IMG/VR virus record: IMGVR_UViG_2602041644_000008
Coordinates: 1-37,809 of that record
Strand: one strand, 5' to 3'
From: a virus
Lineage: Duplodnaviria > Heunggongvirae > Uroviricota > Caudoviricetes
DNA length: 37,809 nucleotides
The notes under the pieces were generated by a model that saw only the letters and a program-made list of their open reading frames with translations, did not search any database and was not told the origin of the DNA. Below are positions 36,834-37,809 of the stretch, in pieces. A program made the position numbers and the translations under genes. Position 1 is the first letter of the stretch, and every line of letters begins with the position of its first letter.

Positions 36834-37036
36834 AACCAACACTCCTCTCATTGCTGCGAGGTGGAAAACACAGCATCCGAGATATGGCAAAGATTCTTGG
36901 TATCTCAAGATCGAAGGTTTCTTGGTTCATCGCTGAGCTTGAACGTCGCAAATGGGTAGAGGTAACCAGGAGCGCAATATATTTCCACGATGGAACCAGA
37001 TCCAACAAGCAGAACGAATACAAGGTTAAGTTATGA
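36830..37036 (+). CDS. Small HTH DNA-binding protein
   Basis: 68 aa; HTH-like segment MAKILGISRSKVSWFIAELERRKWV. Confidence 0.45.
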   Translation: MKPTLLSLLRGGKHSIRDMAKILGISRSKVSWFIAELERRKWVEVTRSAIYFHDGTRSNKQNEYKVKL

Positions 37037-37581
37037 ATACTGGCATCTATTTCGACATCAGCAATGAGGACTACCACGCCGGTGACGGCGTGAGTAAGTC
37101 GCAACTAGACATGGTTGCCAAGAATCCGGCGCTTCTTAAATGGGTTCAGGCAGCACCAGAAGACGAAGAGAAAAAGTCTGCACTGGATATGGGAACCGCA
37201 TTGCACTGTCTGCTTCTGGAGCCTGGAGAGTTCGACAAACGCTTCATTGTTTCACCGAAATTCGATCGTCGGACGAAACAAGGTAAAGCTGACGAAGAGG
37301 CATTTCTTCGTGATGTGGCGGATATGGGGATTACGGTACTTGATGCCGAGCAGTGGCGGAAACTGGAGCTGATGCGTGATAGCGCAATGGCTCACCCGGC
37401 GGCACGCTGGATGCTGGAAGCACCTGGTTACTGCGAAGCATCAATGTACTGGAACGATGAAGATACTGGTGAGTTGTGCCGCATTCGTCCAGACAAATGG
37501 CTGAACGAGCACAACGTGATCGTCGACGTGAAAAAGGTTGCAGATATGGACCGTTTTGCATGTCAACGCCACGATGTTTGA
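37033..37581 (+). CDS. RecE/exonuclease VIII-like PD-(D/E)XK nuclease, probably truncated by IS insertion
   Basis: N-terminus GIYFDISNEDYHAGDGVSKSQL and IVDVKK motif fit the recombination-exonuclease family; ORF stops a few codons after the catalytic motif where IS-derived sequence begins. Confidence 0.45.
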   Translation: MNTGIYFDISNEDYHAGDGVSKSQLDMVAKNPALLKWVQAAPEDEEKKSALDMGTALHCLLLEPGEFDKRFIVSPKFDRRTKQGKADEEAFLRDVADMGITVLDAEQWRKLELMRDSAMAHPAARWMLEAPGYCEASMYWNDEDTGELCRIRPDKWLNEHNVIVDVKKVADMDRFACQRHDV

Positions 37582-37620
37582 CCGTTATTTGCCATTTTCA
37601 TGCCCGCTAAGATACTTTCG

Positions 37621-37809
37621 TTACTGATGCTGTCCGCTTTTCACCATTTCATCATCACTGATTGGCGTTGTGTTTTTGGTCAGCACTCCAGCTTTACGTT
37701 TCTCTTTTAACCGGTAACTCTCTCCTTTGATATTCAGCGTGGTTGAGTGATGTAGCAACCGATCCAGTATCGCTGTTGCCAGCACGTGATCTCCGAACAT
37801 TTCTCCCCA
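37621..37809 (-). mobile_element. IS21-family element, 3' part of istB (helper ATPase) reaching the window edge
   Basis: Minus-strand translation ...[40 protein letters not shown]...KSGQHQ* resembles IstB C-termini; IS terminus estimated at ~37560-37620. Confidence 0.5.

Follow-up and report, generated by a model that had tools for sequence, protein, structure and literature searches.

IS21 in a RecE-type exonuclease gene carried by a phiV10/epsilon15-like prophage of Escherichia coli LAU-EC10

We take the IncP-alpha plasmids RP4 and R68 to carry archetypal IS21 (IS8), the archetype of the IS21 family. In this family, istA, the gene of a DDE transposase of approximately 390 aa, is directly followed by istB, the gene of an AAA+ helper protein of approximately 265 aa. 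Elements of this family carry a catalytic CA dinucleotide at their termini (PMC11208146), and the target choice of IS21 is described as structure-based, with kink-prone DNA being favoured and no clear sequence specificity (PMC11208146, PMC10122671). The target duplication of IS5376 is reported as 5 bp (PMC10122671). Here we describe IS21 ends in the exonuclease gene of a prophage that is related to the epsilon15-like temperate podophages phiV10, TL-2011b and EC.W1-9, the interrupted gene itself being related to recE of the Rac prophage.

The stretch of DNA that was analysed (the window, 37,809 nucleotides) corresponds to the terminal 37.8 kb of contig AYNJ01000093.1 (263,057 bp) of E. coli LAU-EC10 (GCA_000506505.1), an ESBL-producing isolate whose a5 assembly of 2x250 MiSeq reads comprises 147 contigs (PMC3931373). 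The open reading frames and the annotation of complete E. coli genomes identify a left chromosomal flank at 1-1071 on the plus strand, consisting of the host genes yfgH (1-516) and yfgI (532-1071). It is followed by the left 17-bp att core, AATCATTCCCACTCAAT, at 1164-1180, which was recognized as the longest word common to window positions 1001-1800 and positions 4251-4600 of L009, a stretch of the partner contig AYNJ01000058.1 (99,244 bp) of the same assembly, in which all partner-contig coordinates given below are counted. The second copy of AATCATTCCCACTCAAT, at L009 4512-4528, overlaps the last codons of guaA (L009 4514-6091, minus strand), from which it follows that the phage uses the 3′ end of guaA as its integration site and rebuilds this gene.

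The element is a phiV10/epsilon15-like prophage of approximately 40.5 kb that lies between yfgI and guaA and, the IS aside, has both of its ends complete. Its structural and replication regions form the part that is 97-98% identical to phiV10, TL-2011b and EC.W1-9, and this identity was found for window positions 9400-34000 over 50-89% of the length. Prophage relatives are likewise located between yfgI and guaA and share the early-gene order with the window; in two of them, in E. coli E47 and DETEC-S566, the exonuclease gene is uninterrupted, unlike in the window prophage.

Other features were noted along the prophage. A tRNA-Arg gene (anticodon tct) is located at 25772-25848, and tRNA-Arg is annotated also in the related O157 typing phages 9 and 10. 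Within a DnaT-like replication-initiator gene (34074-34889, minus strand), three adjoining tandem-repeat arrays with periods of 12, 24 and 18 occupy positions 34453-34592 and encode the repetitive peptide NGNVPENGNIPKNGMLNDPKNGMLNDPKNG; by analogy with lambdoid O genes, these arrays are probably origin iterons.

The exonuclease gene is represented in the window by an open reading frame of 182 aa at 37033-37581 on the plus strand, which has no continuation on that strand. The product matches phrog_412 (exonuclease VIII, E 3.8e-81) in PHROGs and the Pfam family PF12684 (PDDEXK-like DUF3799, E 5.5e-13); because the latter match covers only profile positions 1-134 of 233, the window reading frame is truncated. 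Its gene-derived part, codons 1-176 of 273, extends over 37033-37560 on the plus strand, and these 528 nt are identical to the intact E47 gene. The sequence up to 37560 is 100% identical in both E47 and DETEC-S566, in which the gene comprises 822 nt and encodes 273 aa.

The preliminary description had called the reading frame RecE-like, and in agreement with this the intact E47 allele aligns end to end (residues 12-268) with the nuclease domain of RecE (PDB 3H4R, E 1.9e-77). As in RecE of the Rac prophage, the spacing of the D ... DxK residues and a YHVQDA(M/F)Y segment are kept, and a RecT gene lies downstream. The likeness to RecE/ExoVIII concerns the nuclease domain only: the NCBIfam profile NF007259 (exodeoxyribonuclease VIII equivalog) spans 877 positions, of which the intact allele matches 606-873 with 305.9 bits, far below the cut-off of 1269 because the long N-terminal part is missing in this 273-aa protein. 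Judged from these profiles, the interrupted gene is RecE-like, its intact product being a stand-alone nuclease-domain protein.

The catalytic core is present in the window reading frame, with D165-V166-K167 (37525-37533, plus strand) read from the sequence as part of the (D/E)xK nuclease motif and aligned with the residues 'imDvK' of RecE in 3H4R, and with D154 (37492-37494, plus strand), likewise read from the sequence, as the partner catalytic residue of D165 and K167. The gene-derived part then ends 9 codons past K167, at residue 176, and the reading frame stops 15 codons past it, so that the complete nuclease domain (approximately 260 aa, as in 3H4R) and the QxxxY motif are absent. QxxxY has a role in RecB-family nucleases. 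In the uninterrupted allele it is formed by Q187 and Y191 in the YHVQDA(M/F)Y segment conserved with RecE; here it is located with the remainder of residues 177-273 beyond the IS on the other contig, and the truncated product thus lacks 97 C-terminal residues, or 36% of the protein. Among the best 120 homologues, nearly all of which are 270-284 aa long with 273 aa as the commonest length, none ends at residue 176, and a natural end of the family at this point, which would have spoken against an interruption, was therefore not found. Because more than one third of the domain is lost, and with it a conserved active-site motif, the 182-aa product is predicted to be very probably inactive, as the preliminary description had also supposed.

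The position of the break was determined by aligning the window with the intact gene and with a copy of the IS. Likeness to intact prophages ends at 37560 (...CCGTTTTGCA) and likeness to the IS begins at 37561 (TGTCAACGCCACGATG...), so that the last stretch of the reading frame (37561-37581, plus strand) consists, according to alignment and translation, of six codons (CQRHDV) and a TGA stop that are derived from the right end of IS21. It had been claimed earlier that the exonuclease ends abruptly at 37581, a few codons after its catalytic motif, and that an IstB-like fragment of an IS21-family element extends from 37621 to the window end; the end of the reading frame and the family assignment stand, the element being IS21 itself, but the insertion point is 37560/37561, the IS begins at 37561 and 37621 is instead the end of istB.

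The right terminal inverted repeat of the IS is located in the non-coding positions 37561-37620 (minus strand), as defined by alignment with the repeat at the left end and by the same terminus in five complete copies. It is followed by the 3′ end of istB (37621-37809, minus strand), comprising the last 62 codons with the TAA stop at 37621-37623 and being truncated where contig and window end. This 62-aa fragment matches positions 199-238 of 238 of the Pfam family IstB_IS21 (E 4.7e-16) as well as the NCBIfam IS21 helper ATPase models NF038214 and NF006616, which confirms the IstB C-terminal fragment that had been described on the minus strand from 37621 onwards. All 249 nt from 37561 to 37809 are identical (0 mismatches) to the right end of the RP4-borne IS21 in E. 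coli S17-1, and because such a stretch is 100% identical to complete IS21 copies, the match is not due to chance.

As reference we used this RP4 copy in S17-1 together with three further complete chromosomal copies. The same IS21 copy is present in S17-1, ST18 and MFDpir, and in S17-1 its neighbours are a disrupted aphA on one side and parDE on the other, both belonging to the RP4 backbone. Copies of 2131 bp, in which istA encodes 390 aa and istB 265 aa, were retrieved by a full-length search from many chromosomes and plasmids of E. coli. A plasmid copy in NZ_CP024255 (L001 3003-5134) was dropped as a reference: it is 2132 bp long, a 1-nt indel breaks its istA, it is without a target duplication, and it is probably a defunct copy whose surroundings have been rearranged. 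An inverted-repeat finder missed its terminal repeats owing to the indel in the repeats, and direct alignment showed them.

The 182-aa protein (ETE19355.1) is known from one assembly only, GCA_000506505.1, according to an exact protein look-up, and its chimeric gene ends 228 nt short of the end of AYNJ01000093.1, which is also the window end and lies inside a repeat. The 249 nt of IS at this contig end correspond to approximately one read length, as is typical of a contig break at a multicopy repeat; the short-read assembler could not get past such a repeat, hence the end of the window at 37809.

To find the other side of the break, candidate remnant reading frames were looked up among known proteins. 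None of ten guessed reading frames, which assumed the E47 allele and a duplication of 2-8 bp, was present in the protein collection. A second set built on other C-terminal alleles found ETE23854.1, which led to the partner contig; the E47 protein ends ...MYI, whereas that of LAU-EC10 ends ...MYV. AYNJ01000058.1 ends with 350 nt of the left end of IS21 (L009 1-350), which again show 0 mismatches to the RP4-borne copy in S17-1, and the first 83 codons of istA (L009 1-249) are included in it. Transposase sequence, which had been expected beyond the window, is thus present there. Together, the last 62 istB codons of the window and the first 83 istA codons of the partner contig are the assembled portions of the two genes at this locus, and both are identical to the complete RP4 copy (IstA 390 aa, IstB 265 aa).

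The remaining 97 exonuclease codons follow beyond the IS and contain an 84-aa remnant reading frame (MYREGAM...KQDMYV) that is annotated as 'hypothetical protein' (ETE23854.1). ETE23854.1 and ETE19355.1, the latter annotated as 'exodeoxyribonuclease VIII', are two halves of one gene. The distal junction reads ...GCTGACA, TGCA, CGCCAC..., and after TGCA the sequence resumes with the next base of the gene (CGCCACATCGAGG...). When window positions 37033-37560 and L009 355-648 are joined, an 822-nt reading frame (273 aa) results that has a single base different from E47; the intact gene is therefore regained in silico once the IS and one TGCA are taken out.

The two copies of TGCA constitute a 4-bp target-site duplication. 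The proximal copy occupies 37557-37560 and is the last part of the gene sequence before the IS (...CCGTTTTGCA followed directly by TGTCAACGCC), and in the partner contig the distal copy is placed between ...GCGCTGACA and CGCCACATCG; the intact target across the insertion point, GTTTTGCACGCCACATC, contains TGCA once. A search for such a duplication had been proposed in the preliminary description, and TGCA was accordingly found at both junctions. Duplications of the same length, ACGT, CGCG, AACA and TAAG, flank the four complete reference copies.

The ends of the element show the further features of the RP4 IS21, namely the TG...CA termini, the multi-repeat terminal inverted repeats, TTGACA, TATAAG and the 4-bp duplication (PMC10122671, PMC11208146). 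In LAU-EC10, TG is located at 37561-37562 and CA at L009 349-350, and the same termini occur in five complete copies. The left and right ends align over approximately 50 nt (TGTCA[A/G]CGCCA...); the left end contains an internal second copy of the terminal motif, TGTCCGCTCCA, and at the right end only a weaker internal repeat was recognized (CGCTAAGAT vs CGCCACGAT). With both ends 100% identical to IS21 (IS8) of R68/RP4, only the location differs from the archetype, and the middle 1.5 kb of the LAU-EC10 copy is unassembled.

On the minus strand, the outward-reading terminal hexamer at 37561-37566 is TTGACA, a perfect -35 sequence, and the left end reads TGTCAGCGCCAGTGATATAAG, with the -10-like TATAAG 15 nt in from the terminus. 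Where two IS21 copies abut, a promoter arises from a -35 box contributed by the right repeat and a -10 box contributed by the left one (PMC10122671), and by their sequence and placement TTGACA and TATAAG are the predicted two halves of this promoter. At the present site, TTGACA points antisense into the 5′ fragment of the exonuclease gene. A search for an outward hybrid promoter at the right end of the IS found no minus-strand promoter-like site and no acceptable -10 sequence at a spacing of 16-18 nt.

Taken together, both junctions, the duplication, the identity of the IS ends, the conserved order on the far side and the reading frame restored in silico are direct observations, and they make it very probable that one IS21 copy transposed into the exonuclease gene of the LAU-EC10 prophage, a single complete copy being assumed for the unassembled interior. 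According to this model, IS21 (2131 bp, istA-istB) would have inserted at codon 176/177 of the RecE-type exonuclease gene in the phiV10/epsilon15-like prophage that is integrated at the 3′ end of guaA, through staggered 4-bp cleavage of the target, which would have given rise to the TGCA duplication. The istA-istB genes lie on the minus strand, so that the right end abuts the 5′ fragment of the gene and the left end abuts the 3′ fragment.

The same ends and the same duplication would also be produced by two directly repeated IS21 copies that flank extra DNA, as in a plasmid cointegrate or a composite transposon. The two contigs break off within the IS, at 249 nt and 350 nt from its ends, with nothing between them seen; moreover, IstA acts on tandem IS21 and a cointegrase isoform has been described (PMC10122671), and IS21 is common on E. 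coli plasmids, being matched in 2,254 plasmid records. However, a single multicopy IS is sufficient to give contig breaks at both of its edges when short reads are assembled, 4 of 4 reference copies are simple insertions flanked by 4-bp duplications, and there is no sign of extra DNA at the locus, which is why we consider a pair of copies improbable.

A contig ending in an IS would, from the window alone, be compatible as well with a rearrangement involving the IS (adjacent deletion, inversion or IS-IS recombination), after which the 3′ part of the exonuclease gene and the integrase end would no longer adjoin the rest of the prophage, and deletions and fusions do occur in the exonuclease gene of other strains. 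The partner contig argues strongly against this. Here a 4-bp copy of the proximal flank precedes the gene sequence, which continues with exactly the base that follows the break, and the genes past the IS are the exonuclease remnant, recT, an AlpA/Xis-like gene, perC, MT-A70, DUF1382, int, guaA, guaB and xseA. The corresponding order in E47 is intact exonuclease, recT, an HTH gene, perC, MT-A70, DUF1382, tyrosine integrase and guaA; the arrangement through int, guaA, guaB and xseA agrees with that in E47 at 98% identity, and both att cores are present. The suggestion that the integrase end may be separated from the rest of the prophage thus holds in the sense that the IS lies between them and the integrase end is on another contig, with the gene order preserved, and a rearrangement is very improbable. 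That the junction is a chimeric contig end in a gene without an IS is scarcely credible even though contig ends in repeats are the usual site of assembly errors, because both junctions lie exactly at the terminal TG and CA of IS21 in two independent contigs with a shared 4-bp duplication, and GenBank annotates separate 182-aa and 84-aa remnants (ETE19355.1 and ETE23854.1).

We then asked where else the insertion occurs. The LAU-EC10 junction is present in none of 5,426 complete E. coli genomes, and neither a search for the proximal junction (exonuclease anchor, N{0,30}, IS21 end) nor one for the distal junction (IS21 left end, N{2,32}, exonuclease anchor) gave a match (0 each) in the genome and metagenome contig collections. 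Because all four junction scans were empty, the insertion event is not contained in those collections. The event is an ordinary one: the IS and the type of prophage gene are both known, and the site is new and specific to the strain.

A second IS21-like insertion into the same gene, in the same orientation, was found in other E. coli (SRR23081270 contig 448; GCA_033742855.1). The truncated homologue P0096 (190 aa) ends ...EEFRY-CQRHDF, and its contig carries a related IS end, TGTCAACGCCACGATTTTTAACC, that differs at 2 of 29 nt and follows codon 183, 21 bp downstream of the LAU-EC10 insertion; the terminal sequence is TGTCAACGCCACGAT... The evidence is located at L004 2983-3096, L023 3470-3551 and L019 1-80, in unrelated strains. 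In GCA_033742855.1, the two exonuclease halves are on separate contig ends, and the remnant and recT are on a contig of their own. The host allele differs from that of LAU-EC10 (D18G, G65R, D144E), and because the site, the IS end and the host allele all differ, this insertion is a separate event caused by a related element.

If the 822-nt gene alone is considered, chance would place a second insertion within 21 bp, with matching orientation, in roughly 2-5% of cases. This nearby insertion may reflect a hotspot or a coincidence, and it is suggestive at best, two events being too few for a hotspot claim; that codons 176-183 (21 bp) are a preferred landing site of IS21-type elements is therefore doubtful. 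If they were, IstB could choose locally deformable DNA there, or strains with an interrupted prophage recET-xis operon could be favoured. A resemblance of the target (GACCGTTTTGC, CGCCAC) to the IS ends, by which the transposase might be attracted, was rejected: the best local alignment scored 15, a value reached by 63% of 1,870 background windows taken from this prophage.

Frameshifts, 5′ deletions and a fusion with a replication-protein fragment were found in the exonuclease gene of other strains, and decay of this gene is therefore common. In the fusion (P0125/P0131, 288 aa), exonuclease residues 1-199 are joined to a fragment of replication protein P. Other decay (L010 and L011; P0150) comprises a 5′ loss with a MarR-like gene and N-terminally shortened forms of 112 aa.

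The IS is oriented against a string of plus-strand genes that runs downstream of a 194-aa HTH (repressor-like) gene through the exonuclease gene, recT and the xis-like gene. A RecT-family gene (PF03837) directly follows the exonuclease remnant (L009 645-1526), as it follows the intact gene in E47, and after it an AlpA/excisionase-like protein of 82 aa is encoded at L009 1576-1824 (PF05930; phrog_66, E 2e-16). Because the IS opposes the direction of the operon, the 2.1-kb insert is likely to be polar on recT and possibly also on the xis-like gene, as far as gene arrangement allows prediction. Phage antitermination may read through the IS, and downstream genes may have promoters of their own.

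With respect to the preliminary description, only the exact junction coordinate needed correction, and the rest of its interpretation is supported. The finding has little significance beyond annotation: the contig break is explained, and AYNJ01000093.1 and AYNJ01000058.1 of LAU-EC10 are linked across one IS21. The second nearby insertion is a weak hint on the target choice of IS21. For the prophage itself, the prediction is that it is without a RecET-type recombination function of its own; if the insertion is polar, the RecET-type recombination module would be disabled and excision may be impaired. Should polarity reach the Xis-like gene, poor excision would be possible, and the locus would be a minor instance of prophage domestication driven by an IS.
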